Notes: generated by a model from the sequence alone, not told the origin. Counted from the first letter of the stretch, positions 6,676 to 29,354 are shown. The stretch is 46,173 bases of DNA from Polyangiales bacterium (GCA_040508235.1 JBEVNG010000374.1:1-46173), one strand, 5' to 3'. Made by a program: numbers and translations.

Positions 6676-7643
6676 ACGCAGCTCGCGACCTCGCCGAAGC
6701 CGAGCGCATCGCCCGACCCAGCGTGAGTGACCATTCCCGCATCGGGCAAGATCGCGACGATCGTGCTGCCTTTCGCCCCCGGGTCGCTGGCGATGCGCGT
6801 GGCTACGGCGATCGCGGCGCCGCCGGACAGACCGGTGACGATGCCCTCCTGCGCGGCCAGCTCACGCATCGTGCGCAGCGCCTCTTCGTCCGTGACCCGC
6901 TCCGCGCGGTCCAACAAGTTGAGGTCGAGCGTGCGAGGGATGAACCCACACCCGAGCCCCGCGATCCGATGCGCACCCGGCGTGAGCGCCAACCCGGCGA
7001 GCGTCTGCCCGATCACGGGGCTCGCGTCGGGCTCGACCGCAACCACCTGCAGCCCGGCGCTCTTGCCGCGGAGGAAGCGCGCCACGCCAGTCACGGTGCC
7101 GCCCGTGCCCACGCCACTTACGAAGTAGTCGAGCTGACCGCCCGTCGCCTCCCAGATCTCCGGGCCAGTGGTGGCCTCGTGCACACGCGGATTGGCGGGG
7201 TTGTCGAACTGCCTGGTGTAGTAGGCGCGCTCGTCTTGGCCGGCGATCACCTCGGCTTCTTCGATCGCGCCGCGCATGCCGAGGTGGAGCGGCGTGTTGA
7301 TGATGCGCGCACCGAGCGAGGCGAGCAGCACGCGACGGTCGAAGTCCATCAGCTGGGGGATGCACAGGGCGCAGCCATAACCGCGTGCCGCGGCGACCGT
7401 CGCGAGCGCAACCCCCATGTTGCCGCAAGTCGCCTCGAGCACGTACATACCGGGCCGGATCACGCCGCGTTGCTCGGCATCGGAGACCAAGCCGGCGGCG
7501 AGCCGACACTTCACGGAGCGTGCGGGGTTGGCGCCTTCCAACTTCACCAAGATGCGCGCGCCCGTCCAGCGCGAGCGCTGCCGCAAACAGACGAGCGGAG
7601 TGTTTCCTACGGCCAAGCTGATGTCTTCCGCTATTCGCGTCAT
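6672..7643 (-). CDS. Cysteine synthase-like PLP enzyme (O-acetylserine sulfhydrylase family) with an atypical substrate loop
   Basis: GNTPLV motif, PLP-lysine motif SVKCR, GVGTGGT glycine loop. ATG at 7643 preceded by GGGGAGGA. The Asn-loop reads TCGNMG instead of the canonical TSGNTG. Confidence 0.85.
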   Translation of the reverse strand: MTRIAEDISLAVGNTPLVCLRQRSRWTGARILVKLEGANPARSVKCRLAAGLVSDAEQRGVIRPGMYVLEATCGNMGVALATVAAARGYGCALCIPQLMDFDRRVLLASLGARIINTPLHLGMRGAIEEAEVIAGQDERAYYTRQFDNPANPRVHEATTGPEIWEATGGQLDYFVSGVGTGGTVTGVARFLRGKSAGLQVVAVEPDASPVIGQTLAGLALTPGAHRIAGLGCGFIPRTLDLNLLDRAERVTDEEALRTMRELAAQEGIVTGLSGGAAIAVATRIASDPGAKGSTIVAILPDAGMVTHAGSGDALGFGEVASCV

Positions 7644-7777
7644 CGGAGTCCTCCCCATTGTTGGTCGCGCGCGCACGTCTCCACCCGCGCGCCGCACTCG
7701 CGTCGCAACCCATTCACCCAGCTCGAATCGTACGGCTCCAAGATCGGCGCCGCAGGTCACGGCACCTCGTGCGCGGC

Positions 7778-8686
7778 TCAGCTACGCGAGGCGCTAGCGA
7801 ACCAGCGCGCGCACTCCGGGCCGAGTTCGCGCTCCGCGCGGGCCTCGTAGCGCTCGACGTCGACCCGACTCAACACCTCGCGCCAGCGTCCGTTGACACC
7901 CTTGTTGACGAACGTGCGCGAGCCGTCGTCCCAGAATGCGCCCTCCATCGGCAGGCTCTTGGTCGCGTTCGCCTTCATGTACTCGAAGGAACAGTGGTGC
8001 ACGATCTCCTGCCAACGCTGCTGGTCGACCGGCACATCGAGGAAGCGCGCGACCTTACGGATCTGCCCTGACAGGTCGCGCTTGAGCTCTTCGTAGTGGA
8101 GCATCAGCACGTTGGGCAGCTGCCGCGCGGACCACCACGAGCGTGCGTGCGCCCAGAACGGCCAGAACGGATAGCCATCGCGCTCGAGCCACTCGATAAA
8201 GTACTCGCGCACCGAGGCCGTAGGCTTCTCGAGCGCGTGACCGACGCGGCCGGGCGTGTCGTTCATCGTCTCGTACCAGAGCGCATTCGCGTTGGCGTGG
8301 TGGTTGTGCATGCTCCACACCACGTCGCGCCCGTCGCGCGCGACGTGGATGTACTTGGCCTTGGGCACGAACACCAACCCGTCGACCGGCAGGTGCGTCT
8401 TGAGGAAGCGCCGATGCGTCTGCGCCTCGACGTGCCGCAGCTTCACCTCGGGCGGGGGAACACGCAGCTCGAGGCACGGTGACATGCGCGCCACCTCCAG
8501 CCCCTCGGCACCGTTGAACAGCAGTTGGGAGACGATCTGCTGCATCCAGGTGGTCCCCGACTTCGCGTAGGTCGCGATGACGATGTCATCGTCGCGGTAC
8601 CTGAAGTCGTTCCAGATGCGAGAGTCCGCATGATGGTTCTGGACTTCACGACGCTTGCGCGGCCAGTCGATGGTGGCGTTCTGCAT
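7778..8686 (-). CDS. PAPS-dependent sulfotransferase (aryl/cytosolic sulfotransferase fold)
   Basis: 5'-PSB loop YAKSGTTWMQQIV and 3'-PB-like ARDGRDVVWSMHNHH. ATG at 8686 preceded by AAGGAGA. Confidence 0.85.
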   Translation of the reverse strand: MQNATIDWPRKRREVQNHHADSRIWNDFRYRDDDIVIATYAKSGTTWMQQIVSQLLFNGAEGLEVARMSPCLELRVPPPEVKLRHVEAQTHRRFLKTHLPVDGLVFVPKAKYIHVARDGRDVVWSMHNHHANANALWYETMNDTPGRVGHALEKPTASVREYFIEWLERDGYPFWPFWAHARSWWSARQLPNVLMLHYEELKRDLSGQIRKVARFLDVPVDQQRWQEIVHHCSFEYMKANATKSLPMEGAFWDDGSRTFVNKGVNGRWREVLSRVDVERYEARAERELGPECARWFASASRS

Positions 8687-8723
8687 TGTTGGTCTCCTTG
8701 GAAGTGCTGGCGCCGCTGCGCGG

Positions 8724-9818
8724 CTAATGCATCGATACGGGCGCGCTCGCGTGACCGGACGGCTCTGGCCAGCGACGATCGACACCGAGGTGCTCCATGA
8801 ACATCACGATTCGCTGCGCGACCGGGACTGCCTGCTCCTCGACCGCGAAGTGCCCTGCGTCGAGGAGGTGCAGTTCGGCCTCGGGCACGTCGCGCAGGTA
8901 AGCCTGGGCCCCCGCGGCGATGAACGCAGGGTCCTCTCGTCCCCACACGATCAACGTGGGCGGGCGCCGCTCGCGCAGGAACGCTTGCCACCGTGGGTAG
9001 GCATCGATGTTGTTCTGGTAGTCCTGGAACAGCGCCACCTGAATGCGTCGGTCCTCATTCGAGGGCAGGCGCGCAATGTCGTGTGTCCAGCTGTCCGGGC
9101 ACATGCGCGTGGCCTTCTCTCCCGGCACGTCGCGCAGGTACTGCTTCTCGCGGATCGCGACGTCGCTCACGAAGCTGGAGAGCGTTTGCAGGTTCTCGGC
9201 CGAGCGATCGTCGCGTGCGCGCTTGAAGAACTCCTGTCGCGGTGGTGTCAGGCCGTCGAGGTACGCATTGGCGTTCTGGATGACCAAGCCGCGCAGGCGC
9301 TCGGGGTGCGCCATCGCCACGCGAAAACCGACCGGCCCCCCGAAGTCTTGCATGTAGAGCACGTACGACTTCAGGCCCAGCGCATCGACGAAGCCCGTGA
9401 TGTGCTCGGCGAGCAGGTCGAACGTGTACCGCACCTCGTCCGGACTCGGGCGTTCGCTGAAGCCCGAGCCGAGGTAGTCTGGCGCAAGCACGTGGTAGCG
9501 CCCAGACAAGAGCGGAATCAGCTCGCGATAGGTATGCGACGACGACGGATATCCGTGCAGCAACAGCAGGGTGGGCCGCGTGGGATCTCCCGCCTCGCGA
9601 TAGAAGATGCGCCGCCCCGTCACCTCGACGGTTCGGTAGTACGTCTTCGCCGGCCAGGTCGGAGCGGGGATCCCGTCGGCGTCGCCATTCGCATGCCGCT
9701 CGGCTGCGAGTGCGTGCGCGTCGACCGCTTGCCGGACCTGGTGCGCGCACCCCGCGAGCGCGAGGATCGTGCCTAGTGCAGCGAACGAGAGCGTGCGGGA
9801 GAAGGTGTGTTGCGACAT
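8724..9818 (-). CDS. Exported alpha/beta hydrolase lipoprotein, Asp-nucleophile type (epoxide hydrolase / haloalkane dehalogenase-like)
   Basis: ATG at 9818 preceded by AGGAG. Lipoprotein signal MSQHTFSRTLSFAALGTILALAGC. LLLLHGYPSSSHTY oxyanion region and nucleophile elbow MQDFGGPVG. Confidence 0.8.
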   Translation of the reverse strand: MSQHTFSRTLSFAALGTILALAGCAHQVRQAVDAHALAAERHANGDADGIPAPTWPAKTYYRTVEVTGRRIFYREAGDPTRPTLLLLHGYPSSSHTYRELIPLLSGRYHVLAPDYLGSGFSERPSPDEVRYTFDLLAEHITGFVDALGLKSYVLYMQDFGGPVGFRVAMAHPERLRGLVIQNANAYLDGLTPPRQEFFKRARDDRSAENLQTLSSFVSDVAIREKQYLRDVPGEKATRMCPDSWTHDIARLPSNEDRRIQVALFQDYQNNIDAYPRWQAFLRERRPPTLIVWGREDPAFIAAGAQAYLRDVPEAELHLLDAGHFAVEEQAVPVAQRIVMFMEHLGVDRRWPEPSGHASAPVSMH

Positions 9819-16129: not shown

Positions 16130-17188
16130 TTAGCGGCGCAGGAACCAATAGCCCGCGAGCGCGATCACCATCGTGCTGACGGCGGCGATGCTCATCAGCC
16201 ACAGTGGACGATGGGCGCCACGAACGGTCACCACGCTGGTGGGGATGGCCGCCTCGCCGCCAAAGCTGGGGATGTCGCTCTGCAGTGCCATACGCAGCGC
16301 GCCGATGGTGCGAAACCGGTGGTCCGGATCGGGCGAGAGCGCCACGCGCAGGACTTCATCCACGTAGGCCGGCACGTCGCCACGGCGATGGTGGATCGAA
16401 GCGAACGTGAGCGCGCTTCCGGTGCGTCCGGCGCGGGTCAGCGCACGCTGCGTGAACGGCGGCTCCGACATCAGCAGGTAGTACAGGATGCAGCCCACCG
16501 AGAACACGTCCGCGCGCGCGTCGACACGCGGGCTGCCCACGGACTGCTCGGGCGCCATGTAGTGCAGCGAGCCCACGGCCATGCCCTCGCGCGTGATCGG
16601 CGCGCCGGTGCGGCCGGTGCGCACGTAGGACTTGGACAGGCCGAAGTCGACGACCTTGCAGTGCAGCCAGCCGTCGCGGCGTCCCACCACGATGTTGCGC
16701 GGCTTGAGGTCGCGATGCACCAGGCCGGCGTCGTGCACGGCATCGAGCGCCGCGCACACCTGCACGATGATCGCGAGCGCGTCGCTCCAGGGCAGGCGCC
16801 CGCGCTGCAGGATCTCCTGCGTGAGGTCGTGGCCCGCCACATGCTCCATGACCAGGAACGGCGCGCCGTTGGCGTGGTGCCCAAAGTCGTAGAGGCGCGC
16901 GACGTGCTCGCTGCGCACGCGGTGCAGCGCGCTGGCCTCGTTGCGGAAGCGACGCTGTGCCTCGCGCATGCGACCCAGGTGCGCGTGCATCAGCTTGAGC
17001 GCCACGCGCACGTCGCGCTTCTCATCCTGCGCCGCGTAGACCGAGCCCATGCCGCCGCGTCCGAGCAGCTCGATCAGGCGATAGCGGTCGCCGACCACCG
17101 TGCCGATCTCCAGGCTCTCCCGCTCGACGCGCACGCCCGTCGTCTCGACGGGTGAGCTGGAGCTCGAAGACACGGAGGAGGCGGTCAC
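16130..17188 (-). CDS. Ser/Thr protein kinase (Hanks type) with a C-terminal transmembrane anchor
   Basis: GRGGMGSVY glycine loop, VALK, HRDLKPRNIVV, DFGLSK and APE (MAPEQ). C-terminal hydrophobic segment LWLMSIAAVSTMVIALAGYWFL. GTG start at 17188. Confidence 0.9.
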   Translation of the reverse strand: MTASSVSSSSSSPVETTGVRVERESLEIGTVVGDRYRLIELLGRGGMGSVYAAQDEKRDVRVALKLMHAHLGRMREAQRRFRNEASALHRVRSEHVARLYDFGHHANGAPFLVMEHVAGHDLTQEILQRGRLPWSDALAIIVQVCAALDAVHDAGLVHRDLKPRNIVVGRRDGWLHCKVVDFGLSKSYVRTGRTGAPITREGMAVGSLHYMAPEQSVGSPRVDARADVFSVGCILYYLLMSEPPFTQRALTRAGRTGSALTFASIHHRRGDVPAYVDEVLRVALSPDPDHRFRTIGALRMALQSDIPSFGGEAAIPTSVVTVRGAHRPLWLMSIAAVSTMVIALAGYWFLRR

Positions 17189-17256: not shown

Positions 17257-19221
17257 TCAGTGAGCAGCGCGAGCCTGGGCCAGGGCCCAGAGGGGAAAGA
17301 CCTTGGTGTAGTTGTCGTAGTGGATCGCGCAGCTCTTGTTGAACATGCCGGCGATGCCCTCGGCCGGGTAGCTGCCGTCCGCGCGCTGGCGGTCGATCAG
17401 GAACTGCACGCCGCGCTGCACGGCCGAAGATTGACCTCGGCCCGCCGCGATCAGGCCCAGCACGGCCCAGGCGGTCATCACGGCTTGTCCGCCATCGGAG
17501 TGCACGTAGCGGCGCGAGTAGTTGCTCTCCGGGGTCTCGCCCCAGCCGCCGTCGGCCTGCTGGTGCTGCTCCAGGAACGAGACCGCGCGCTTGATGCGCG
17601 GGTCGCTGCCCGACACGCCCGCGGCGCGTAGTCCCTCGAGCGCAAACCAGGTGCCGTAGGTGAAGCACACGGCCCAGCAGCCCTCCCACGAGCCGTCCTC
17701 GCGCTGACGCGTGAACAGGTACTCACGGCCCCGCGCGATCGCGTCTTCGATCTGCGCGCGCACGGGCTCGTCCGGGAACGCCTCCAGGTACTGCACCAGG
17801 CCCATGATCGACGACGCCGTGCACTCCACGTACGTGTAGTCGATCATGATGTCGCTGAAGATGTTCGCGACGTTGAGCTTCTCCAGCCAGGGACCGGTGC
17901 GCGGCGGCTCGTAGCTGGCCCAGCCGCCGTCCGTGTGCTGGCTCCAGAGCAGGTAGCCGACGGCCGCGCGCAGGTCTTCGTGCTTCATCGGCTGCTTCAC
18001 GCGGCCGCGCATGTCCAGCACCGCGCGCAGGGCCTCCGCCGTGCAGTCGCTGACGATCCAGCCGTTGTGCTTGTTGGAGAAGCCCCAGCCGCCGCGCGTG
18101 GGGTCGCGGTAGCTGCGCTGACGCATGGGCAGGTCGCGCTTGACCTGGTTGTCATCGAGGTAGCGGTTGGCGCGCTCGAGGGCGTCGTCGACCTGTTCCC
18201 CGGTGGCCACCAGCGCCTGCGCCGCGAACGACGTGTCCCACACCTGCGAGGAGTGGTAGCCCTGCACCTTGGTGCCGTCCTCGGCGCGCCACAGGTACTC
18301 CGGGTACTTGGCGACGTGACGCTGGAACTCGGGGCCACCGCGGCGCGCGTGGTGCCAGACCCACATGTTGTAGGGCTTGTTGACCGGGCCGAGGCACACG
18401 TAGTCCGTGTTGCGGTCCTCGTGATCGATCTGCTCCAGCACCTCGCGCATCGCGCGCGGGCGCAGCGGCTTGTACGGCAGCGCCTCGTAGGCGTGCATCG
18501 CCTTGTTGGCGAGCTTGGCCAGGTCGCTGAGCGGCGTGTAGTCGTCGCTCGGCGCCACCTGATCGCGGCCGCTCTTCCAGTCGACCTGCTCGTACGGCAC
18601 GTCGTAGAGCTCCCCGCGGATGGCGAGGACCTTGTCGTCCACCGGCATCTGCACGCGCGCGCCGTAGAGGTACGACATCGGCATGTAGACCATGCGCGAG
18701 TGACACCACATGTGCGACGGATGCACGGGCAGGTCCTTGGGCAGGATCCACAGCTCGGGCGGCACCGGGTTCATGCCGCGGTAGTCGTAGAGGTTGAGCA
18801 GCGCGAGGCAGAACTTGCCCCACGAGGCCGACGTCAGCGGGCCGCCGTTGTCGCGGATGAAGTGGCGCGCCTTCACCAGCGCGGCGTCGTCCGCCGGCAC
18901 GCCATGCAAGCGCATGGCGGCGTAGATGATGGTGCTGGTGAACTGGTAGCTGTGGCTCTCGATGTGCAGGCCCCAGCCGCCGTCGTCGTTCTGCGTATTG
19001 CGCAGGTAGCGCAGCATCTCGTCGCGATCGCGCGCATCGAGCGGGGCGCCGGTGCCGTAGCAAGTGGCGAGGTACAGCGGCACCAGGAACATCGGCCCGC
19101 CGTAGTCCCCGAGCCAGTGTCCCGCCTCTTCCTGCGTCGCCGTCAGGTGCCCGATGGCCCGCGAGATGGCACCCGACAACGCGTCCTTGCGCCCTTTGGA
19201 CGACTCAACGACCGCTTCCAT
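17257..19221 (-). CDS. Oxidosqualene cyclase (sterol-forming triterpene cyclase)
   Basis: Catalytic motif GWIVSDCTAEAL (VSDCTAE is the OSC type, as opposed to DxDDTA of squalene-hopene cyclases). Several QW repeats (QNDDGGWG, QHTDGGWASY, RQREDGSWEG, QQADGGWGE). ATG at 19221 preceded by GGTGGAGAG. The listed ORF begins at GTG 19233. Confidence 0.9.
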   Translation of the reverse strand: MEAVVESSKGRKDALSGAISRAIGHLTATQEEAGHWLGDYGGPMFLVPLYLATCYGTGAPLDARDRDEMLRYLRNTQNDDGGWGLHIESHSYQFTSTIIYAAMRLHGVPADDAALVKARHFIRDNGGPLTSASWGKFCLALLNLYDYRGMNPVPPELWILPKDLPVHPSHMWCHSRMVYMPMSYLYGARVQMPVDDKVLAIRGELYDVPYEQVDWKSGRDQVAPSDDYTPLSDLAKLANKAMHAYEALPYKPLRPRAMREVLEQIDHEDRNTDYVCLGPVNKPYNMWVWHHARRGGPEFQRHVAKYPEYLWRAEDGTKVQGYHSSQVWDTSFAAQALVATGEQVDDALERANRYLDDNQVKRDLPMRQRSYRDPTRGGWGFSNKHNGWIVSDCTAEALRAVLDMRGRVKQPMKHEDLRAAVGYLLWSQHTDGGWASYEPPRTGPWLEKLNVANIFSDIMIDYTYVECTASSIMGLVQYLEAFPDEPVRAQIEDAIARGREYLFTRQREDGSWEGCWAVCFTYGTWFALEGLRAAGVSGSDPRIKRAVSFLEQHQQADGGWGETPESNYSRRYVHSDGGQAVMTAWAVLGLIAAGRGQSSAVQRGVQFLIDRQRADGSYPAEGIAGMFNKSCAIHYDNYTKVFPLWALAQARAAH

Positions 19222-19234
19222 CCCACTCTCCACC

Positions 19235-19258
19235 GTTGACGTTGACGTTGACGTTGAC
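19235..19258. repeat. Perfect tandem hexamer (GTTGAC)x4, read as (GTCAAC)x4 on the coding strand
   Basis: gttgac gttgac gttgac gttgac at 19235-19258, followed by gtg. Lies in the 67-nt spacer between the fusion-gene stop (19289) and the OSC ATG (19221), abutting the OSC SD. Confidence 0.9.
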
Positions 19259-19288
19259 GTGGCCGGCGACGGCGACGATCCCGCGGTA

Positions 19289-22200
19289 CTACGCCCTACG
19301 CTCCGCGACCATCACCGGCTGCCAGAGCGCGTAGTAGCGATCCCGCAGGTACTCGTCGTCTCCCACGTGCATCACGCACTCCGCGATCACCTGCTCCACC
19401 GTCTGGCGCGAGATCTTCACCTCTTCGCCGACCGTGAACATCGCGTCGTTGCCGCGTGCGTGCACCAGCGTGTGTGCCGCCATCCAGAGCGGGAGCAGGC
19501 AGAACAGGCGCACGCCCTTCTCGTCCGTGGGCAGCGACAGCGCGTAGTCGAGCGCGCGGTCGAGCTTGATGCGCGCGAGGTCGAGCAGCGGCGCGACCGC
19601 ATCGTGCGCCTGATCGCGCACGCTCGGGTCGACCAGGTTGTCGATCCGGATGCCCACGCGCTCGCAGGCCGCGCGCGGCACGAACGACCAGCGGCGGGCG
19701 CGGTCGTCGGTGACGTCCTTGAGGATGTTCACCAGCTGCAGGCCCGCACCGAAGGACTCCGCGTGGTGGCGCAGGTCCGCCATCGTCTCGGGGTCCATCT
19801 TGTCGTTCAGCGCGTCGATGAACAGCTCGGTGAGCATGTGCCCGACGGTGCCCGCGACGTAGTAGCAGTAGCGCTCGAGATCTTCGTTGGTGTACAGCGC
19901 GACGAAGCCGTCCGGCCCCGGCTCGCGGTGCGTGTACAGGCTCATGCCGCGCGCCATCTCGGCGGTCCAGCGCGACACGATGACCTGCATGCTCTCGGGC
20001 AGCTTCTGGAACACGCGCATCACGCGCGGGAAGTTGCGCGCCGCGTTGAGCTCCGCGTCGTCGCCCTCGATCTCCTCGAAGGCGCTCGCCATCTTCTGCG
20101 CCTCACCGCGATGCTCCAGCGTGGCCAGGAACATCTCGAACAGGCTGTCCTTCTGCCCGCGCGGCACGGCCGGGTGATCTTCGATGGTGTCCGCGATGCG
20201 GCACAGCAGGTAGCCGCAGGTGACTGCGACCTCGAGATCACCGGGCAGCATCTGGATGGGCTTGGAGAACGTGCGCGAGACCGCGACCAGGCTCTCCTTG
20301 CAGAACGTCCAGTCGTCGCCCTCGACCTTGACGCCCTCGGCGCGCGGCCTCGTGCGCCGCTTCTGCTCCCAGCCCGCCAGCGCGTCGACGACGTCGCAGC
20401 AGCGGTCCCAGCTCTCGTCGCGCGCGGCGCGCACGTCGGCGCTGAGCGTGTCGCTGAGCAGCGTGACCAGGTGCGGCACCGCGCGCTGGATCGCGCCCCA
20501 GTGTGGACCCGGCACCGTCAGCAGCGCCTGCACCGCGCGCGCCGTCAGCTCGGGCGAGCCCGCGCGTTCGTCGCTGCGAGCGTGCCAGGTGCCATCGGCG
20601 TGCTGCTGAGTGCACAAAAAGCGCGCGGCGCGGCGCAGGGCCGGCGACGACGCCTGCATGCCGGTGGCGACCAGCGCGCGCATCGCGTGCACCGTGTTGC
20701 TGAGCGCGCCCTCGGTCTCCGAGGCCGGCCATGCGCCGTCCTTGCGCTGCGTGGCGAGCAAGAAGCGGTTGGCGCGGCGCAGCGCCTCGTCGTAGCGCAG
20801 CGCACCGTCGTCGCCGTAGCGATCGCGGCAGCGTGCGAGCGCGCGGCAAGCGAGCTCCGTGATCTGGTAGTCGGGCACCGCGTTGGGCGTCGGCCAGGCG
20901 GCGAAGCCACCGCCAGCGCGCTGGCACGCCAGCAAGTGGCGCACGCCATCCTCCAGGCGATCGATCGCCTCGCCGTCGTCCGGCGTGAGGATGCTGAGCA
21001 TGAAGGTGGCGAAGTCGCTGGCGCGGATGACGTGCGGCTCGGCCTGGTACGCCGCGACCAAACGCGTGATGCCCACGCGCGCCATCGGGCGCTTGGCCAG
21101 GCGCATGCGCGCCTGCATGCTGGTGCCCAGATCCGCCGCGTCGATGGCCGCCACGATGCGCGTGGCGCTGCGCAACAGCGCCCAGTCCGGGGCGCGGCCG
21201 ATCTGCTCGTGCAGCCGGCGCAGCTCCACCAGCAAGGCATCACCGGCGAGCGAGAGCGCCTCCTGCACGGTGCCCTTCTCGCTCGCGGCCACCGGCGTCT
21301 CGACCACCGGCGCGGGCGACAGCGGCTCCGCCTTGAGCACGCGCATGCCCGGCACGCGCAGCGGCAGCGGGCGATCCGACGTGCTCTTCATGCGGTAGAC
21401 CTTGCGGCCGCGCGAAGGAACGAAGTTGGCGGCCGGCCACTGCATCCACTCGCGGTACGAGGCGAGCGTCTGGCCGAACTCCTTGAGGCGCTTGGTCTGG
21501 CCCAGCTCCTTGACGCTGGAGCCGAACGCGCTGAGCGCGATGCGCGAGAACACCACGCCGAACGAGCTGCGACGCGGCTCCGCGCCCATCAGGATACGCA
21601 TGGTGCGCTCGCGCTCGAAGCGGCTCTGCTTCCACACCTTCCAGGTGGCGCTGCGGATGGCGGCGGCGCTGGGGTCCTCACGCGCGAACACGTGATAGAG
21701 CGCGTTCGAGAGCAGCTCCGGGACGTAGCTCTCCTTCTCGCGCTGCTTCTGGTACTCCTTGAGCGGCACGCCCGAGCCAGCGAGCTCCGCGTCGAGGAAG
21801 CCGAGCGTCATGCCGGCGGCGGTCAGCGGGTGGAAGTGCCCCACCGCGTCGCCCGCGAGCGTGATCGCGTCGCGGCCGTAGGTGGCGCGCGGCGCGAAGC
21901 GATTCACCGCCCAGCCGACCGGACCACGCTCCAGCGCGTCGCGGAAGGAGCCGCGCAGGCGCTCCGGTATCACGGCCGCGTAGCCGTCCCAGAGGAACGC
22001 CGGGTTGCGGCGGTTGGCGTCGAACGAGAGCGGCACGTCGAAGCAGCCGCGGATCAGATCCGGGCCGATGCGGTAGAGCAGCACCGGGCCAGGTCCACCG
22101 AGCACGACGTGTCCGTAGCCCTCGACCGGCAGCTCGACGCCGCGCAGCTCGACCGAGCCCATGTACGAGACGGCCTGGCCGTTGCCGAGACCCAGCGCCT

Positions 22201-22687
22201 TGCGGGCGACCGAGGCGCGGCCGTCGGCGCCGATCACGCGACCCGCGCTGACGGTGGTCTCGCCGCTCTTGGTGCGGAACGTGACCAGGTTGCCTTCGAT
22301 GTTCGTCACGCGCGCGTGCGGGCGGTACTCCACCTCGGGCAGCGCGATGGCGCGCTCGCGAATGCTCTCGACGATGCGCGAGTGCTCGCAAGCGAGTGCG
22401 ACGTGGCCGGCGGGATACGGAAGCTCGATGGGCTCGCTGCCGTCGTCCGGAAAGACCACGAAGCCGTAGCCGGTGCGCGCCTCACCGCCCTCCAGGCGAC
22501 CGATGCGCAGGCGATCGAGCACCGCGACGCCGGTGGGATGCAGCCACTCGCCCGCGAAGCGATTCGCGGCCTCGGGGTTGGCCTCGAGCAGGAGCACACG
22601 TTGCCCGCTGCGTGCCGCGGCCACGGCGGCGACGGATCCGACCGGCCCCGCTCCGACCACCACGACGTCGTAGCTGTTGCGTATCAT
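19289..22687 (-). CDS. Tri-domain fusion: FAD squalene monooxygenase (epoxidase), prenyltransferase/squalene-cyclase-type alpha-toroid repeat domain, and squalene synthase
   Basis: Uninterrupted 1132-aa ORF. ATG at 22687 preceded by GGGAGGCACGAAGGG. aa 1-390: DVVVVGAGPVGS FAD fold and the epoxidase signature GDAVGHFHPLTAAGMTLG. aa about 470-745: repeat motifs QRAGGGFAAWP, QRKDGAWP, QQHADGTWH. aa about 790-1132: squalene/phytoene synthase motifs SRTFSKP, CRIADTIED, YCYYVAGTVGHMLT, GLQLVNILKDVTDD. Confidence 0.85.
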   Translation of the reverse strand: MIRNSYDVVVVGAGPVGSVAAVAAARSGQRVLLLEANPEAANRFAGEWLHPTGVAVLDRLRIGRLEGGEARTGYGFVVFPDDGSEPIELPYPAGHVALACEHSRIVESIRERAIALPEVEYRPHARVTNIEGNLVTFRTKSGETTVSAGRVIGADGRASVARKALGLGNGQAVSYMGSVELRGVELPVEGYGHVVLGGPGPVLLYRIGPDLIRGCFDVPLSFDANRRNPAFLWDGYAAVIPERLRGSFRDALERGPVGWAVNRFAPRATYGRDAITLAGDAVGHFHPLTAAGMTLGFLDAELAGSGVPLKEYQKQREKESYVPELLSNALYHVFAREDPSAAAIRSATWKVWKQSRFERERTMRILMGAEPRRSSFGVVFSRIALSAFGSSVKELGQTKRLKEFGQTLASYREWMQWPAANFVPSRGRKVYRMKSTSDRPLPLRVPGMRVLKAEPLSPAPVVETPVAASEKGTVQEALSLAGDALLVELRRLHEQIGRAPDWALLRSATRIVAAIDAADLGTSMQARMRLAKRPMARVGITRLVAAYQAEPHVIRASDFATFMLSILTPDDGEAIDRLEDGVRHLLACQRAGGGFAAWPTPNAVPDYQITELACRALARCRDRYGDDGALRYDEALRRANRFLLATQRKDGAWPASETEGALSNTVHAMRALVATGMQASSPALRRAARFLCTQQHADGTWHARSDERAGSPELTARAVQALLTVPGPHWGAIQRAVPHLVTLLSDTLSADVRAARDESWDRCCDVVDALAGWEQKRRTRPRAEGVKVEGDDWTFCKESLVAVSRTFSKPIQMLPGDLEVAVTCGYLLCRIADTIEDHPAVPRGQKDSLFEMFLATLEHRGEAQKMASAFEEIEGDDAELNAARNFPRVMRVFQKLPESMQVIVSRWTAEMARGMSLYTHREPGPDGFVALYTNEDLERYCYYVAGTVGHMLTELFIDALNDKMDPETMADLRHHAESFGAGLQLVNILKDVTDDRARRWSFVPRAACERVGIRIDNLVDPSVRDQAHDAVAPLLDLARIKLDRALDYALSLPTDEKGVRLFCLLPLWMAAHTLVHARGNDAMFTVGEEVKISRQTVEQVIAECVMHVGDDEYLRDRYYALWQPVMVAERRA

Positions 22688-22897
22688 CCCTTCGTGCCTC
22701 CCTGCGGCGGTGTAACCAGCACTCGTGATGCGGGCAAGCTTTCCGCGAGGGTCGAACAGCGTGGGAACGTCAATAAAATCCTAGTGAAAGAGCCTTCACT
22801 ATCAGCGAGGGAATCTCACGGGTGGCGCACGTGCACAAACGCATGCGTTACACGCAAAGTGCACTGACACGCGCGCAAACGCTGACCGATCAGGTCG

Positions 22898-24364
22898 CTA
22901 TTCGTCGCAGTTGATCGGCCAGGCCGGCGCAACGGGCATGTACAGCGAGCGACCGTCCGAGGGCTTCCACTCGGTCACGGTCGAGTGCAGCGTGAACGTG
23001 GGCATCTCCTTGAGCACCGCGGCGTCGAGATCGCCACTGGCCACGAGATCCTTGAGCACGGTCATGCTGACCGGCCGCATGCGCATGCGCGCGGTCAGGC
23101 GCGCGGGCTGAATGCGGCCCGGCGTGCGGTAGTTGCAGGTGGCCACGTGGTTCGCGAGCGGCGTGATCGCGAGCGGCAAGAGGCGCGACTCGTTGTCGCG
23201 CAGCTTCGACGCCTCCCAGAACATGTGCGCTTCTTTGCCGCTCTCGTCCTCCCAGACGTTGCGGAACATGCACAGCTGCGAGTCGTGGCGTGGATCCGTG
23301 ACCGGGTACTCTTCCTCGTCCTGGTCGCCGATCACGCCACTCTGCCAGAGCACCTTGTCGGTCTCGTCGTAGGCGATGACCTCCATCCACAGGCGGCGAT
23401 CCTGCGCCACGCCGCTCGGCTGCGCGTGGCCGGCGCGCGTCTCGATGGCGATCTGGAAGCCACCAGCGCCATCGTTGGTCAGCTCGAAGATGTACGCGCC
23501 GTCCTCGCTGAGCGTGCACTCGGTGTCCAGCTTGAACTTCTCGCGATCCGGGAAGTCGTGCAGCGCGACGTCGACCGCGGGCCACAGGTGCTCGTGGCGA
23601 TCGCGTTGTGGCAGGTTCATGCCGGGCACCTTCGCGATCGTGGTCGTCTCCACCCACGGCATGTGGCAGCCCTGGCAGGTGTCCCCGCCCTGGTTGCCGC
23701 GCACCGAGATATTGTGGATGCTCGACTCGTACTCGGCGAACGTGCGCTCGATGTGCGCGCCCTTGTCGTTCTTGACGTCGTGGCAGCTGCCGCAGAGCTC
23801 CGAGGCGGCCATGCGTCGGCCATCGTGCGCCTCGCTGTAGGCCACGCCGTGCACGCCGGGATCGACAGCGTCGCGGATCGAGCCGCGCATCACGTTGTCG
23901 TTCGCGAGCGTGACGTTCGCGTTGAAGTGATCGGGCCCCGAGCCGGTGGCGTTGTGGCAGAAGTAGCAAGTGACGCCCTTCTGCGCCTTGGGCAGCGTGT
24001 CCACGTTCAGGCCGTCCGTGGTGAGCCCGTTACGCACGGCCATCGGCGCGTGGCACTGGATGCAGAAGTCGCCGAGCGCGCCGTTGGTCTCGCGCTGCCC
24101 GCGCTTGTTCATCGCAATGAACACCGGGTCCTCGGCCGCGTAGGCGTGCATGCTGCTGGCCCACTCCGCGTACTGCGACGGGTGGCAGGTCTTGCACGTC
24201 TCGGGATCCTGCAGCTGCTCCAGGCTCAGGCGCTGCGGCGTCGCGATCATCGCCGCGTCGCTGCCGGCGTCCTGCTCGGGCTTGGGCGGCGGCTTGGCGT
24301 CGTCACCACAGCCGAGCGCGCTCGTGGAGAGCAGGCCGGCCACCAACACGAACTGACTCCTCAT
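22898..24364 (-). CDS. Pentahaem c-type cytochrome lipoprotein
   Basis: ATG at 24364. Lipobox MRSQFVLVAGLLSTSALGC. Five CxxCH motifs (CKTCH, CIQCH, CYFCH, CGSCH, CQGCH) in the N-terminal half. About 220-aa C-terminal region without motifs. Confidence 0.85.
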   Translation of the reverse strand: MRSQFVLVAGLLSTSALGCGDDAKPPPKPEQDAGSDAAMIATPQRLSLEQLQDPETCKTCHPSQYAEWASSMHAYAAEDPVFIAMNKRGQRETNGALGDFCIQCHAPMAVRNGLTTDGLNVDTLPKAQKGVTCYFCHNATGSGPDHFNANVTLANDNVMRGSIRDAVDPGVHGVAYSEAHDGRRMAASELCGSCHDVKNDKGAHIERTFAEYESSIHNISVRGNQGGDTCQGCHMPWVETTTIAKVPGMNLPQRDRHEHLWPAVDVALHDFPDREKFKLDTECTLSEDGAYIFELTNDGAGGFQIAIETRAGHAQPSGVAQDRRLWMEVIAYDETDKVLWQSGVIGDQDEEEYPVTDPRHDSQLCMFRNVWEDESGKEAHMFWEASKLRDNESRLLPLAITPLANHVATCNYRTPGRIQPARLTARMRMRPVSMTVLKDLVASGDLDAAVLKEMPTFTLHSTVTEWKPSDGRSLYMPVAPAWPINCDE

Positions 24365-24371
24365 CGCGCGC

Positions 24372-24932
24372 TCACTCCACGCAGATCTGCACGGTGGCCT
24401 TGCCGACCGTGGCGCCGTTTTGCTGGAGGTCGAACAGCACCTGCCAGGGGCCGCGCATGATGAAGTCGATACGCTCCAGCTTGTACGTGCCGGGCTCCGT
24501 GCCGGGCGACACCACCGGGGGCGTCTTGCCGCCATGGCGATGCACCGGCATGTACGACGCCGGGTTCAGGAACGTGAGCCCCGAGACGGGCTGCCCCGCG
24601 GCGTCGCTTACCTGCACGGTCCAGTCGTTGCGCGTCTTCTGGCGCGGCGGCGCGGGCGTGATCGCCTGCACCTTCACCGTGAGCTCGCCCGCCTTCACGG
24701 ACATGCCGGGCGTGAACGACGGATAAGCGGCGTCGCAGGGCACCTCTTCTTCGAGGTACGGGTCGCCGCCGTCGGCCGTCGCCGCGTCGTGATCGTGCTC
24801 GTGACCACTCGCATCGTGGTCGTGCTCGTGATCATCGCCTTCCCCTGCGGGCGCGTCGTCGCCACAGGCGTACGCGAAGCCGAGCGCGGCGACACAGGTC
24901 GAGAGCAAGAGCCGTTTGGCAAAGCTAGTCAT
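24372..24932 (-). CDS. YtkA/FixH-like Ig-fold lipoprotein with a His/Asp-rich linker
   Basis: ATG at 24932 preceded by GAGGATG. Lipobox ALGFAYAC. Low-complexity EGDDHEHDHDASGHEHDHD. C-terminal beta-rich domain (GTYKLERIDFIMRGPWQVLF). The family call is from memory only. Confidence 0.6.
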   Translation of the reverse strand: MTSFAKRLLLSTCVAALGFAYACGDDAPAGEGDDHEHDHDASGHEHDHDAATADGGDPYLEEEVPCDAAYPSFTPGMSVKAGELTVKVQAITPAPPRQKTRNDWTVQVSDAAGQPVSGLTFLNPASYMPVHRHGGKTPPVVSPGTEPGTYKLERIDFIMRGPWQVLFDLQQNGATVGKATVQICVE

Positions 24933-24939
24933 GACATCC

Positions 24940-26538
24940 TCACTTCTTGCGACGACGCAGGTTGCGGCCCAGCACCATCAGCAACATTCCCAAGCTCGTC
25001 CATGCTCCGTCGGCGCGCTTGTCGCCGATCGCGCAACCATCATCACTCTTGCTCGACGGTTCGTCCGTGACCTTGCCCGCATCGTTTCGTCCCGCATCGC
25101 GCGCGCCCGCATCGAGCGTGCCCGCATCGCGAGGAACGTTGCCCGCATCCAGCAGCGGCACGCCGCCCTCGGGCTGGCCCATGCCCTGCTGGTCGCAGGT
25201 ACGCCCGACCATCTGGTCGTAGGCGAGGCCGGACTTGCCGCAGAACACGCGCTGCGAGCCGCGCATGGTCACGTCGTAGTTGTCGCAGAACGCCGTGCAC
25301 GGGTAGTGCCCCGTGCAGCACCAGGCCGGCCCCTGATTGAGCTGGTCCTGGCAGATCGCGCCGACGTCTGCGTTCGGGCATTCCAAGAGCTTGGGCACCT
25401 CGCTGATGCGCACCACGTTGCCGTCGGCGACCGTCTCGCTCGCCGGGTCGAAGGTCCGGACCCTATCACCCTGGCAGACGTAGAAGTTGTTGTTCGCCTG
25501 CGACCAAGTGACGCAGTCCAGGCCCTGCGTGCCGGCGATGTGCGTCAGCGGCTGGCCGAGCGCGGGGGCGGTCCAAAGACCACCGGGATCCATCGCGTCG
25601 CCCTGATCGCTGAGGTAGACCGCGCCGTCCGGAGCGAACGCCGCACCGGTCAAGTAGCGCAGCTGACCATACTCCTTGAACGTCGCGCCCTCGTCCTCGC
25701 TGAGCAGCAGCACGTCGGCCGCGAGGTCGTCGATGAGCGCGCCGAGCAGGCGCTTGGGGTTGCCCGGGTCGACGGCCACCAGCGTGAACCTGTCGGCCTG
25801 CTCCGCGGCCAAGGCCGGGCCCATGCTCCAGGTCTTGCCGCCGTCGTCCGACTTCACGATGTGCATCAGCTGCTGCGGATCCATGCCCTGCGACACCCGT
25901 ACGGACGCGTAGATACGCGTTCCGGTGTCGGTGAGCGTGACCTTCAGCTCGCCGCCGTACGCCTGCTGTCCCGCCTTGTGCGCGACCAGCTCGCCGGCCT
26001 CCGCGACCGACGTCCAGGCGCCGCTCGCGCCGCGACGCATCAACAGCGCTCGCGACTCGTAGGTGCCGCCGACGTTGCTCGACACGTTCAGGACCGCCAG
26101 CAGCTCGCCCGACTTGGGATCGAGCGCGAGCGACGTGGGCCAGCCCTCGGTGAGCGACTTGGACCAGCTGCAGCCGGTGCCGTCGTCCGACCACATGCCG
26201 CCGAGCTGCGTGGCGTGCAGCTGCCCTGCGCTGTCGAGCAGCGTGGCCGCGTTGGTGTTCACTTCGGCCTGCGTCAGCTTGGTGACCGTGTCGCTGCCTG
26301 CGTCCACGATGCCGCCGAGCGACGTGATGCCGGCGCTACAGAGCGCGGCGAACGTCTTGCCACCGTCGCGGCTGAACAAGAAGCCCTCGCTCGCGGTGCT
26401 CCAGCGCACGACGACGATGTTCTTGTCCGTCGGGTGAAGCAGCACCTGCGACAGCCGCTCGACCGGTCCCGATGCGTGAGCCACCTCGCCGAGCCCACTG
26501 CTCAGGGCCAACATCGCGAAGAAAAGCCTGAATCTCAT
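24940..26538 (-). CDS. Asp-box (BNR) beta-propeller protein with a Cys-rich module and a MYXO-CTERM-type sorting tail
   Basis: ATG at 26538. Signal MRFRLFFAMLALSSGLGEVAHA. Asp-boxes SRDGGKTF, SDDGGKTW, SEDEGATF. Ten Cys in about 115 aa. C-terminus DDGCAIGDKRADGAWTSLGMLLMVLGRNLRRRKK (GC motif, TM helix, basic tail). Confidence 0.8.
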   Translation of the reverse strand: MRFRLFFAMLALSSGLGEVAHASGPVERLSQVLLHPTDKNIVVVRWSTASEGFLFSRDGGKTFAALCSAGITSLGGIVDAGSDTVTKLTQAEVNTNAATLLDSAGQLHATQLGGMWSDDGTGCSWSKSLTEGWPTSLALDPKSGELLAVLNVSSNVGGTYESRALLMRRGASGAWTSVAEAGELVAHKAGQQAYGGELKVTLTDTGTRIYASVRVSQGMDPQQLMHIVKSDDGGKTWSMGPALAAEQADRFTLVAVDPGNPKRLLGALIDDLAADVLLLSEDEGATFKEYGQLRYLTGAAFAPDGAVYLSDQGDAMDPGGLWTAPALGQPLTHIAGTQGLDCVTWSQANNNFYVCQGDRVRTFDPASETVADGNVVRISEVPKLLECPNADVGAICQDQLNQGPAWCCTGHYPCTAFCDNYDVTMRGSQRVFCGKSGLAYDQMVGRTCDQQGMGQPEGGVPLLDAGNVPRDAGTLDAGARDAGRNDAGKVTDEPSSKSDDGCAIGDKRADGAWTSLGMLLMVLGRNLRRRKK

Positions 26539-26677
26539 GCGTGCTCCCAAGGCCATCATTGCTACCGCAAGACCATGGGATGACGCAGGGCTTTCCGCAC
26601 GCAATGCGGAGATTTTTGTGTGCTGCGGGCTCTTTACCCCACAACGCCATGGTCGCTTTCGCGCCTGACGGTTTCGG

Positions 26678-27379
26678 TCAGGGCGTGCTCGCGCCCGTCA
26701 TTCCGTCGACGCCTGCATCGGACTCGGTGCGCTCGACGATCGTTCCATCGGGCGGCGCGACCGGCGCCCAGCGCAGCTGCAGGTAGCCCGAGGAGCCCGC
26801 CGAGTTGTAGTAGCCCTCGACCGCGACCTTGAAGAACGCGCCTTCCTGCGAGCGCACGACATAGACGTTCGCCTTGGGCGAGAGCGCGTGCGTCGATGGA
26901 TCGTACGCGTACCAGACATAATCGCCGGTCGCGATCACATAGTCGGGCTCGTTGTCCGAGTCGCTCCCGTCGGGACCATCCGACGCGTAGCCGGTGTATG
27001 GCGCCTTGGTCACGGCTGCGAACGTGCTGTCCGTCACGACCGATACCCTCACCGTGCCGGCGCCGCTCAATCCGCCGTTGGTCGCCAGCTTGAAGCGCTG
27101 CGCCTTGAGATCCCACTGCGTCCAGTTGGTCGCGTCGGTGCGCGTCTCGCCGGTCTCTAGGTCGACGTACACCCACACCATGCTGTTGGTGGTGTCGAGC
27201 TCGCGCTTCTGCTCGATAGGCGCGGGTGGCGGCACGTAGCCATCTCCGCTGGCGCTCGCGTCGAGCGGCGCGGTCGGCACGCCGCCGTCGAGGTTGGGCT
27301 CGGGCTCCGGCTCTCCCTCGGGCTTGAGGTCGTCACAGCCGACGAGGGCGAGCGCCAGGATCAAAGCGGTGCGTCTCAT
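26678..27379 (-). CDS. HmuY-like lipoprotein
   Basis: ATG at 27379 preceded by GGAGA. Lipobox LALALVGC. Resembles the HmuY family (WDLKAQRFKLATNGGLSGAG...; VYVVRSQEGAFFKVAVEGYY). Only one His in the whole protein. Confidence 0.6.
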   Translation of the reverse strand: MRRTALILALALVGCDDLKPEGEPEPEPNLDGGVPTAPLDASASGDGYVPPPAPIEQKRELDTTNSMVWVYVDLETGETRTDATNWTQWDLKAQRFKLATNGGLSGAGTVRVSVVTDSTFAAVTKAPYTGYASDGPDGSDSDNEPDYVIATGDYVWYAYDPSTHALSPKANVYVVRSQEGAFFKVAVEGYYNSAGSSGYLQLRWAPVAPPDGTIVERTESDAGVDGMTGASTP

Positions 27380-27391
27380 GTCGTCTCCAGA

Positions 27392-29299
27392 TCAGATGCT
27401 GAGGTTGAGGCCCGCGTAGAACGTGGCGGGGCGCAGTGGGTTGTTGGCGTCGCCGGAGTCGGTGGCGTTCTCCACCACGAGGTACGGCTCGACGTAGCGA
27501 CTGATCACGAACGAGGCGCGCAAGTCGAGCACCGCGTAGGGCGAGCTGAGGTCGCGGTCGTCCATCATGATGTGGCGCTTGCCCATGAACAGGCAGCGCG
27601 CGGAGAACGAATAGCGCTCGCGCGTGTACACCGAGCGCAGCGAGCCGCGATGGCGTGCGCGCCCCTGCAGCGGCGTGTCCTCCACCAGGTCCCGCGTGTC
27701 CGTGAACGTGTAGTTCACCTCGAACAGCAGGCCCTCCAGCGGACGCGTCTGCACGGAGCTCTCCACGCCCTGCGTGCGGGCGCGCGCGTAGTTGGAGTAG
27801 GAGAAGACCTGCTCGCCGCCCTCGATGCCGGCCAGGCGCGTGTCGATCAGGTCGCGCAGCTCGTTGCGGAACAGGTTGAGCGTGCCGCCGACCCACTTGT
27901 AGCCGTGCACCTCGGCGCTCAGGTTCGCGCCCAGCGAGTGCTCGGGCTTGAGGTCCGTGTTGCCGGTGACGCGGTAGCCCGCCGCGGGGTTGGCGAAGAT
28001 CAGGTACAGCTCGCTGAAGCTCGGCGCGCGAAAGCCGCGGCCCACCGCGCTGCGCAGCACCAGCCAGCTCCATGGGTCGTAGCGCAGCGCGATGCGCGGC
28101 GAGACGTTCACGCCGTACTGCGAGTCGACGTCGAGGCGCGCGCTCGGCACGATCGCCAGCTGCGCGATCGGACGATACTCGACCTGCGCGTACGGAGAGA
28201 TGCGCCCGCGCGTGCCGATCTCCGACAAGCGCGGCGTGTCGTAGCGCTGGCCCAGCGCCTCGATGCCGCTGGTCAGGTGCAGCGGGCCGAGCTCGTTGTC
28301 GCTCTGCAGGCGCACGGTGGCCAGCTGCTCGTTGGCGTCCTCGTAGGTGTCGCCGTCGTCGTCGCGGCGTTGATCGCGCAGGAACTGGCTGCGCAGGTAG
28401 GCGTAGTTGAGGGCGAGCGTGAGCTGGTCGGCCTGGCGCAGCTTCCAGCTGGGCACGGTGGTGAGCATGAGCTCGTCTCCGCGCGCGACGCGGTCGTAGA
28501 TCGCGCCACCGGGGCCGTCGTCGACCCCCTTCTGCTCGCGACGCACCGCGCGCACGAACATGGGCAGCGAGAAGCGCTCGTGAGGGGTGTAGCTGGTGCG
28601 CAGGTTGGCGCTCACGCTGTCGAGCCGGTTGCCCGTGGTGGAGGCGGTGTCGGGCGAGAGATCGAAGGCCGCGTTGCGTCGGTAGGCGACGTTGCCGCGC
28701 GCGCGGAACTTCTGGTTGCCGCCGAACGCGCTGACCCAGGCGTCGCCCTGGTGCCCGCCGTCGCGCGAGATGCCGTAGCGTCCCTGTGCTTCGCCGCCGG
28801 GCTTCTGGCGCGGAGCGCGCGTGATGATGTTGACCACGCCCGCGATCGCGTCGGAGCCGTAGATCGCGGAGGCCGGACCGCGCACGATCTCGATGCGCTC
28901 GATGTCGCCCGCGAACAGGCGCGTGAGGTCGAGCGCCCCGTCGCGCGCACCGATCAAGCGCTCGCCGTCGACCAGGATCAGCGTGTGCTGGGCGTCCAGG
29001 CCCTGCATCTGGATCGCGTCGCCGCGGAACGAGCTGTCGATCTGGATGCCCGGCTGGTTGGCCAGGATCTGCGCGGCGTCGCGCATGCCGCTGGCGACGA
29101 TCTGCGCGCGGTCGATCACCTCCACCGCGACCGTGCTCGCGCCGAGCCGCTCCGGGCTGCGCCGGCCGGTGACCACGATGTCGATCGGCTCCTCCTGAGG
29201 AGGCGCCTCCTCGGCGCGGGCGCGGAGCGGTGCCGCGAGCACGCAGGCGAGCGCCAGCACGCTGCGAAGTGGCGTTCGACTTTCGACAACGGGGGGCAT
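27392..29299 (-). CDS. TonB-dependent outer-membrane receptor
   Basis: Signal peptide, TonB-box-like PIDIVVTG, plug motifs IEIVRGPASAIYGSDAIAGVVNIITR. C-terminal beta-barrel ends ...FYAGLNLSI, with the terminal aromatic two residues in. Overlapping frame 27333..29411 rejected. Confidence 0.9.
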   Translation of the reverse strand: MPPVVESRTPLRSVLALACVLAAPLRARAEEAPPQEEPIDIVVTGRRSPERLGASTVAVEVIDRAQIVASGMRDAAQILANQPGIQIDSSFRGDAIQMQGLDAQHTLILVDGERLIGARDGALDLTRLFAGDIERIEIVRGPASAIYGSDAIAGVVNIITRAPRQKPGGEAQGRYGISRDGGHQGDAWVSAFGGNQKFRARGNVAYRRNAAFDLSPDTASTTGNRLDSVSANLRTSYTPHERFSLPMFVRAVRREQKGVDDGPGGAIYDRVARGDELMLTTVPSWKLRQADQLTLALNYAYLRSQFLRDQRRDDDGDTYEDANEQLATVRLQSDNELGPLHLTSGIEALGQRYDTPRLSEIGTRGRISPYAQVEYRPIAQLAIVPSARLDVDSQYGVNVSPRIALRYDPWSWLVLRSAVGRGFRAPSFSELYLIFANPAAGYRVTGNTDLKPEHSLGANLSAEVHGYKWVGGTLNLFRNELRDLIDTRLAGIEGGEQVFSYSNYARARTQGVESSVQTRPLEGLLFEVNYTFTDTRDLVEDTPLQGRARHRGSLRSVYTRERYSFSARCLFMGKRHIMMDDRDLSSPYAVLDLRASFVISRYVEPYLVVENATDSGDANNPLRPATFYAGLNLSI

Positions 29300-29354
29300 G
29301 CGCGCGCGAAAACCGTCTGCAATCGAAGACCAACCGCGCGCGTCCTACGCGCTG

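Follow-up and report, generated by a model that had tools for sequence, protein, structure and literature searches.

The stretch of DNA analysed here (the window) comprises 46,173 nucleotides (nt) from a Polyangiales bacterium (GCA_040508235.1 JBEVNG010000374.1:1-46173) and carries on its minus strand a gene that joins a squalene epoxidase (SE) domain, a middle alpha/alpha-toroid and a squalene synthase (SQS) domain in one polypeptide, with a gene for an oxidosqualene cyclase (OSC) immediately downstream. A sequence-only reading of the window had reported this three-part anatomy in a single uninterrupted open reading frame (ORF) of 1132 amino acids (aa), as well as the adjacent OSC. An ATG-to-TAG frame is indeed present at 19289..22687; the epoxidase, the toroid with its QW repeats and the Sqs-type synthase are backed by Pfam, NCBIfam, Foldseek and regular-expression motif searches; and the ORF at 17257..19233, on the same strand, scores 619 bits against TIGR01787 and contains VSDCTAE. 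The features of the locus are these:

22697..22703, minus strand: AGGGAGG resembling a Shine-Dalgarno site, 9 nt ahead of the start codon (ATG at 22687; reading of the sequence)
19289..22687, minus strand: whole fusion gene, 1132 codons plus TAG stop (ATG start, ORF translation)
21368..22687, minus strand: squalene epoxidase (flavin adenine dinucleotide, FAD, monooxygenase) domain, aa 1-440 (Pfam, phmmer, Foldseek, invariant columns)
21272..21367, minus strand: linker 1, aa 441-472, proline-rich and predicted to be disordered (predicted local distance difference test, pLDDT, below 50 at aa 451-470)
20336..21271, minus strand: alpha/alpha-toroid like those of class II terpene cyclases, 312 aa (473-784) in 12 helices (AlphaFold, Foldseek, Pfam)
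20729..20776, minus strand: canonical QW motif RANRFLLATQRKDGAW, aa 638-653 (regular expression)
20585..20632, minus strand: canonical QW motif RAARFLCTQQHADGTW, aa 686-701 (regular expression)
20318..20335, minus strand: linker 2, aa 785-790, the short toroid-synthase tether (pLDDT below 50 only at aa 784-789)
19292..20317, minus strand: Sqs-type squalene synthase domain, aa 791-1132 (Pfam, NCBIfam, PDB relatives, Foldseek, invariant columns)
19234..19288, minus strand: 55-nt spacer between the fusion stop and the first OSC start (sequence)
17257..19233, minus strand: OSC gene, 658 aa from GTG (TIGR01787, TIGR03463, Pfam, VSDCTAE)

All of the peptide motifs quoted in the sequence-only reading occur in the translation of 19289..22687. 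Those of the epoxidase are GAGPVGS (aa 12-18) and GDAVGHFHPLTAAGMTLG (aa 279-296), those of the middle region QRAGGGFAAWP (aa 589-599), QRKDGAWP (aa 647-654) and QQHADGTWH (aa 694-702), and those of the synthase DTIED, YCYYVAGTVG (aa 940-949) and LQLVNILKD (aa 983-991). Pfam places FAD_binding_3 and SE within aa 6-397, SQHop_cyclase_N and SQHop_cyclase_C within aa 617-705 and SQS_PSY at aa 802-1094. The domain junctions that had been estimated near 21300 and 20350, equivalent to aa 463 and 780, lie in or beside two low-confidence linkers, aa 451-470 and aa 784-789. These are also the only disordered parts of a full-length AlphaFold (AF2) model built on 46 homologues (mean pLDDT 87.6, predicted template-modelling score, pTM, 0.67), if a 3-residue loop and the C-terminal tail are set aside. 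The Rossmann beta1 strand is the one place in the fusion where a 19-residue window is hydrophobic enough to span a membrane, and since it has no membrane anchor the fusion is presumably a peripheral protein. Conservation was read from a family alignment of 46 members with 43-90% identity, and ratios of nonsynonymous to synonymous substitution rates (dN/dS) were computed against the 90%-identical orthologue at locus L001, the overall value for the fusion being 0.16.

The N-terminal domain scores 83.7 bits against Pfam SE (PF08491, gathering threshold 20.1) and 65 bits against FAD_binding_3. Regular expressions locate its GxGxxG motif as GAGPVG (aa 12-17), with the glycines G12, G14 and G17 nearly invariant (at least 90%), and its GD motif as GDAVGHFHPLTAAG (aa 279-292), in which G279, D280, H286 and P287 are invariant in 46 of 46 family members. 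Its best relative of solved structure in phmmer is human SQLE (6c6n, 104 bits), which Foldseek aligns over 453 columns, covering the C-terminal helical part, with an E-value of 6e-19 and a target-normalised template-modelling score (TM-score) of 0.83. The C-terminal helices extend to the invariant W417, A420 and P440, and Y74 aligns with human SQLE Y195 when the human numbering offset is derived from GxGxxG at residues 130-135. With human SQLE and bacterial SQMO/Smo the domain has in common the FAD fold, GxGxxG, the GD...HPLT..G motif, the Y195-equivalent Tyr and the C-terminal helical region; it shares with bacterial SQMO/Smo its co-localisation with an OSC, as seen for Smo of the Myxococcaceae (bioRxiv 10.1101/2024.11.01.621555). 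It differs from SQLE, to which it is 24% identical, in having no N-terminal anchor or regulatory domain, in an invariant His, throughout the fusion family, at the position of human Q168, and in being covalently tied to the enzyme of the preceding step. The dN/dS of this domain is 0.11.

The C-terminal domain matches Pfam SQS_PSY (PF00494) with 156.6 bits against a gathering threshold of 26. Its top NCBIfam family is TIGR01559 with 129.9 bits, HpnC, HpnD and CrtB scoring about 45 bits, and its relatives of solved structure are the squalene synthases 7wgh and 1ezf, with a Foldseek TM-score of 0.79-0.80 against human SQS (target-normalised). Regular expressions find the first Asp-rich motif, DTIED, at aa 833-837 and the second, DVTDD, at aa 991-995. 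D833, E836, D837, Y940, D991, D995 and F1062 are invariant in all 46 members, and Y942 and D994 nearly so (at least 90%). Y940 and Y942 sit in YCYYVAG and F1062 aligns with the human NFCAIP region; in rat and human squalene synthase the Tyr of YCxYVAG and the Phe of the FCAIP region are required for the two half-reactions. The fold, DTxED, the second Asp-rich motif, the YCxYVAG Tyr and the FC(A/L)xP Phe are shared with human FDFT1 (1ezf, 3vj8) and 7wgh, DTxED being the form of the first Asp-rich motif that marks Sqs, in contrast to DDxxD (Santana-Molina et al. 2020, PMC7306690). Unlike human squalene synthase, with about 23-24% identity, the fused domain has its N-terminus joined to the toroid and epoxidase, and a hydrophobicity scan of the domain found no C-terminal membrane anchor. 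Its dN/dS is 0.14.

Modelled alone with the family alignment, aa 473-784 gave an AF2 structure of 12 helices with a pLDDT of 94.9 and a pTM of 0.92. The top Foldseek matches are human OSC (1w6j, E 3e-8) and squalene-hopene cyclase (SHC; 3sqc, E 1e-7), followed by drimenyl diphosphate synthase and the small myxobacterial cyclase-like proteins 8pak and 8paj, and then by MstE, complement TED domains and GH105. Sequence models agree at lower strength: SQHop_cyclase_C and SQHop_cyclase_N score 33 bits each (cut-off 26; weak but above threshold), TIGR03463 scores 59 bits, and an NCBIfam OSC-like stretch covers aa 611-704, while the prenyltransferase beta subunit family (PF00432) falls short of its gathering score (14.4 vs 26.5 bits). 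Two or more canonical QW motifs occurred in 0 of 5000 shuffles of the toroid. A third, degenerate QW motif lies at aa 589-595; Q647, D650 and G651 are kept in 34-36 of 39 sequences, and R685, R686 and L691 are conserved around the motif at aa 686-701.

Class II triterpene cyclases are two-barrel (beta-gamma) enzymes of about 620-730 aa whose general acid lies in DxDD (SHC) or xxDCTAE (OSC). The toroid has its best structural and sequence relatives in the C-terminal (beta) barrel of SHC and OSC, aligning with SHC residues 386-534 and OSC model positions 454-547, and shares the two canonical QW motifs with them; it differs in having one barrel instead of two, about 18% identity, and no invariant acidic residue. 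Neither DxDD nor DCTAE was found by regular expression anywhere in the fusion protein. The two candidate sites for such a motif have A560 and T610 as their sole invariant residues, with free variation wherever the acid would be expected, in keeping with the earlier description of the toroid as non-catalytic in appearance. The middle domain is a single toroid from the C-terminal barrel of a triterpene cyclase that has kept its QW repeats and lost the proton-donating acid. It is under purifying selection (dN/dS 0.195 over aa 481-780), and linker 1 has a dN/dS of 0.62 (measured over aa 441-480) and a conservation of 0.26. Across all 46 members there is no fully invariant column between aa 441 and 795. 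In the analysis of the candidate acid-motif sites, R527 and R533 are invariant and K532 is 95% basic, all three outside the QW motifs.

BLASTP aligns the toroid with the neighbouring OSC at 27% identity over 195 aa, by way of the repeats. We rejected a recent copy of the OSC on this basis; such weak, repeat-driven similarity points to an old, diverged derivative of a cyclase barrel and not to a recent duplication. In a search of 1.84 billion representative proteins, the only end-to-end matches to the toroid were fusions of about 1130-1185 aa, fragments, and one 696-aa protein consisting of toroid and SQS; everything else matched in the QW repeats only. The 696-aa protein (P0125, L081 602-2692) comes from a single short Logan contig, and the 600 nt upstream of it show no epoxidase similarity. 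The tether of about 6 residues to the synthase, the disordered linker of about 30 residues to the epoxidase and this toroid-SQS protein together suggest that the toroid travels with the synthase.

The downstream gene encodes a complete OSC by family score (619 bits against a TIGR01787 cut-off of 322.7; 713 bits against TIGR03463, under its strict cut-off of 851), matches both Pfam SQHop_cyclase_N and _C, and has three QW motifs besides VSDCTAE by regular expression. An alternative start, ATG at 19221, has a better ribosome-binding site than the GTG. The Val in VSDCTAE probably indicates a lanosterol-type product, according to the rule that Val two residues before the catalytic Asp goes with lanosterol-type rather than cycloartenol-type products (quoted in PMC10152446). 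The OSC is probably co-transcribed with the fusion, and the same adjacency of the two is seen in L001, L003, L006, L007 and L055. No terminator-like site was found within the 55-nt spacer. Half of the spacer is a perfect hexanucleotide tandem repeat at 19234-19260 (CGTTGA x4.5 on the plus strand; GTCAAC/ACGTCA on the gene strand), and in the closest relative, L001, the spacer is about 10 nt.

The sequence-only reading had called for the same architecture to be sought in other Myxococcota, and it recurs there, including in complete genomes of cultured strains. More than 110 clusters (90% identity) came up in a protein search, with lengths of 1030-1270 aa, 96-100% query coverage and 41-90% identity to the query. 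Carriers include Cystobacter fuscus (P0040, on a 12.2-Mb contig) and Sandaracinus amylolyticus (P0045, on a 10.75-Mb contig), and metagenome-assembled genomes (MAGs) labelled Polyangiales, Sandaracinaceae, Kofleriaceae and Myxococcaceae. The C. fuscus protein has the same three Pfam signatures and adjoins an OSC (L007). Since C. fuscus is a cycloartenol producer and S. amylolyticus synthesises lanosterol and zymosterol (Wei et al. 2016, PMC4919349), fusion-bearing organisms do produce sterols.

A locus scan taking one genome per species found 586 relatives, and 80 loci were kept. Intact SE...SQS fusions are present in 22 of these, 10 with a spacer of at least 300 aa as here, 8 with 233-262 aa and 4 with 38-57 aa; what the short-middle class keeps of this toroid is the portion with the QW motifs. 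In 13 of the 80, SE and SQS are neighbouring but separate genes, arranged as in the fusion and usually with an OSC next, and in 43 only an SQS lies beside the match, some of these with the SQS a few kb from an SE-OSC pair. The remaining two (L007 and L014) have a frame change within the middle region. Among the 12 loci with a full-length middle region, 11 have an OSC gene as immediate neighbour, either upstream or downstream. Direct SE-SQS fusions without the toroid, which number 4, also include some that adjoin an OSC (L008, L009, L020), and since unfused operons exist as well, OSC adjacency does not track the toroid. In a rough neighbour-joining tree of the synthase domains, which has no support values and is a hint only, all fused forms and one unfused group fall in one clade, with direct fusions nested among the toroid-bearing forms. 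In Sandaracinaceae-type loci (L002, L004, L005, L010, L014, L018, L024 and L025, at about 5300-8700 in locus coordinates) the fusion has a stand-alone epoxidase paralogue and an OSC as its direct upstream neighbours; the paralogue has 37-39% identity, giving two epoxidase copies per cluster.

We give a probability of about 0.7 to the reading that the fusion is a bifunctional enzyme, predicted from its sequence to convert farnesyl diphosphate (FPP) to 2,3-oxidosqualene, and probably co-transcribed with its cyclase. By its motifs and homology the C-terminal Sqs-type domain would condense two farnesyl diphosphates to presqualene diphosphate and reduce this to squalene, which the N-terminal FAD monooxygenase domain, judged in the same way, would oxidise to 2,3-oxidosqualene; the downstream OSC would then close the rings to a protosterol, probably of the lanosterol type. 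The domain order, epoxidase and then synthase, runs opposite to the reaction order and mirrors the SE-SQS-OSC gene order of unfused relatives, presumably because adjacent SE and SQS genes became fused in their ancestral order. We take the toroid, which would be tethered tightly to the synthase by linker 2 and loosely to the epoxidase by linker 1, for an accessory module of the synthase without catalysis of its own, and think that its part is structural, as a spacer between the two monotopic active sites or a means of positioning them. Related lineages with separate genes, or with direct fusions, show that it is not required for the chemistry.

Several points weigh against this interpretation. 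A purely structural toroid is a default reading, and R527 and R533 could mark a ligand or partner site. The synthase domain misses the TIGR01559 equivalog cut-off of 286.75 bits; because TIGR01559 is nevertheless its best-scoring family, we regard it as a divergent Sqs and not as a member of another subfamily. The second epoxidase upstream in Sandaracinaceae-type loci means that the fused epoxidase of those genomes may be redundant or otherwise employed. A scan for promoters and terminators gave zero promoters and one terminator-like site, inside the fusion ORF, where 2.1 were expected by chance, and these predictions bear on co-transcription of fusion and OSC neither way. The literature searched yielded no biochemical study of any family member.

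A possible though unlikely alternative, related to the docking or channelling role proposed in the sequence-only reading, is that the toroid handles ligands (FPP, squalene or oxidosqualene in the funnel of the barrel) or docks the OSC, so that intermediates are handed on without equilibrating with the membrane pool. Foldseek places the fold among isoprenoid-binding barrels, and the beta subunits of prenyltransferases bind FPP in their barrel. Purifying selection on the toroid nearly matches that on the enzyme domains, the basic residues at 527, 532 and 533 are conserved outside the QW motifs, the OSC is next door in nearly all loci with a full-length middle region, and the full-length pTM is above expectation for three floating domains, which hints weakly at a defined arrangement. 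Against it, class II cyclases bind their substrate between two barrels, of which this protein has a single one; the short-middle class retains only part of the barrel, and toroid-less fusions stand beside an OSC just the same. An extended version, which we consider doubtful, would have the degenerate barrel kept as the hand-off or docking domain of a synthase-epoxidase-OSC sterol metabolon, and such a complex could be ancestral to the separate enzymes of the eukaryotic endoplasmic reticulum, given the proposal that the eukaryotic pathway came from the sterol genes of myxobacteria (PMC8237579).

It is improbable that one of the enzyme-like domains has left the textbook reaction, for instance that the epoxidase-like part acts on another substrate (epoxidising a second time, to dioxidosqualene, or using another isoprenoid) or is a structural pseudo-enzyme. 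The separate paralogue with its OSC in Sandaracinaceae-type loci, the His in place of human Q168 and the unreached Sqs equivalog cut-off would fit such a change. All FAD-binding and active-site motifs are kept, however, human SQLE is the best structural match with its C-terminal helical part included, and no other epoxidase or synthase adjoins the OSC in this window or in the closest relatives. In cycloartenol-producing C. fuscus, of which locus L007 was examined, the fusion is the sole epoxidase gene beside the OSC.

We rejected as very improbable the idea that the toroid is itself an active, non-canonical class II cyclase or prenyltransferase, which would make the protein trifunctional. The fold and QW motifs are those of a terpene cyclase, D606 is acidic in 82% of members, and variant acid motifs exist, such as DxD in MstE (PMC12324236); against this stand the missing acid motif with its freely varying general-acid positions, a single barrel of about 300 aa where the known active site needs two, the absence of invariant columns over aa 441-795, and the complete OSC encoded next door. 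The drimenyl diphosphate synthase of Aquimarina, in which one alpha/alpha toroid is fused to a HAD domain (PMC12324236), likewise has a lone cyclase-derived toroid in a multidomain isoprenoid enzyme, but that toroid is catalytic and has its acid motif, whereas the toroid of the fusion lacks one and the chemistry is assigned to the flanking domains.

That the long ORF is an artefact of a frameshift, of mis-assembly of separate genes or of chance in high-G+C DNA has next to no likelihood and was rejected: long spurious ORFs do arise in such DNA, a 1237-aa antisense ORF does overlap the fusion and two related assemblies do change frame in the middle region, but one frame carries the coding signal evenly throughout, the length and layout are shared by more than 100 independent clusters from NCBI, JGI, ENA and Logan, complete genomes included, the fusion is uninterrupted in 22 species-level loci, the NCBI protein of C. 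fuscus is intact, and the middle region has a dN/dS of 0.2. The window has a G+C content of about 70%; in all 50-codon windows along the fusion frame third-position G+C is 0.84-1.00 with second-position G+C near 0.5, and these windows indicate no frame switch at the domain junctions. The antisense ORF (19154..22867, plus strand) spans the entire fusion and failed the codon-position composition filter, and we read it as a high-G+C shadow frame. In L007 (C. fuscus NCWS, 12-Mb contig, at about 9320-9440) and in L014 the frame shifts in the stretch that separates the epoxidase from the middle region, probably through a long-read indel error and not because the gene is a real pseudogene.

The sequence-only reading was unaware of any characterised example and would have counted it as a refutation if the architecture proved common and already annotated. 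This has come about in part, in that the architecture is common in Myxococcota and its halves carry generic automatic names ('squalene/phytoene synthase family protein', 'FAD-dependent oxidoreductase', 'squalene monooxygenase', and at JGI the dual name 'phytoene/squalene synthetase/...FAD-dependent oxidoreductase'); a paper describing the architecture was not found. Neither the fusion nor its middle domain turned up in full-text searches, most subscription journals lying outside their scope so that an earlier mention is possible. The fusion is unmentioned in Hoshino & Gaucher 2021, Santana-Molina et al. 2020 and Wei et al. 2016, and likewise in a 2024 preprint on cholesterol in Myxococcota and a 2025 preprint on triterpenoid cyclases. 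Both enzymes and the toroid fold are textbook material; the tri-domain layout has apparently never been studied.

Bacterial sterol synthesis, that of Myxococcota above all, is central to two debates, on the origin of the eukaryotic sterol pathway and on the reading of sterane biomarkers. Phylogenetic papers on SQMO and Sqs treat them as separate genes, and their presence in one polypeptide in a large part of the Myxococcota affects how gene trees are sampled, co-transfer is inferred and pathways are reconstructed. The fusion is also, on our prediction, a ready-made, anchor-free FPP-to-oxidosqualene enzyme for triterpenoid engineering in bacteria. Its toroid offers a clean natural case of a terpene-cyclase barrel put to non-catalytic use, and the toroid fusion a tractable system for asking if hydrophobic intermediates are channelled.

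Other natural fusions in the pathway are the CYP51-ferredoxin of Methylococcus (PMC7947880) and, in two Candidatus Binatia MAGs (L048 7938-9950 and L052 7941-9938), a squalene synthase whose C-terminal end carries a polyprenyl (FPP-type) synthetase domain, which joins the synthase to the preceding pathway step. They resemble the present fusion in combining consecutive or cooperating steps in one polypeptide and differ from it in their partners, none having an intervening degenerate cyclase domain.

No other sterol genes were found in the window. Downstream of the OSC lie genes for a Ser/Thr kinase, an unknown protein and a LuxR-type regulator. The kinase gene (16130-17188, minus strand) starts within about 70 nt of the OSC stop, a synteny of kinase and cyclase that is absent in the other loci examined. 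The fusion is directly preceded, on its upstream side, by an operon-like run on the minus strand (22898-29344) that encodes a TonB-dependent receptor, HmuY-like, BNR-repeat and YtkA-like proteins and a multihaem cytochrome, the last of which is syntenic in L001 with 72% identity. A run of three genes at 5725-8803 on the minus strand, some 8.5 kb away from where the sterol gene pair ends, encodes a Sulfotransfer_1-family sulfotransferase, a pyridoxal phosphate-dependent (cysteine-synthase-like) enzyme and a hexapeptide acyltransferase.

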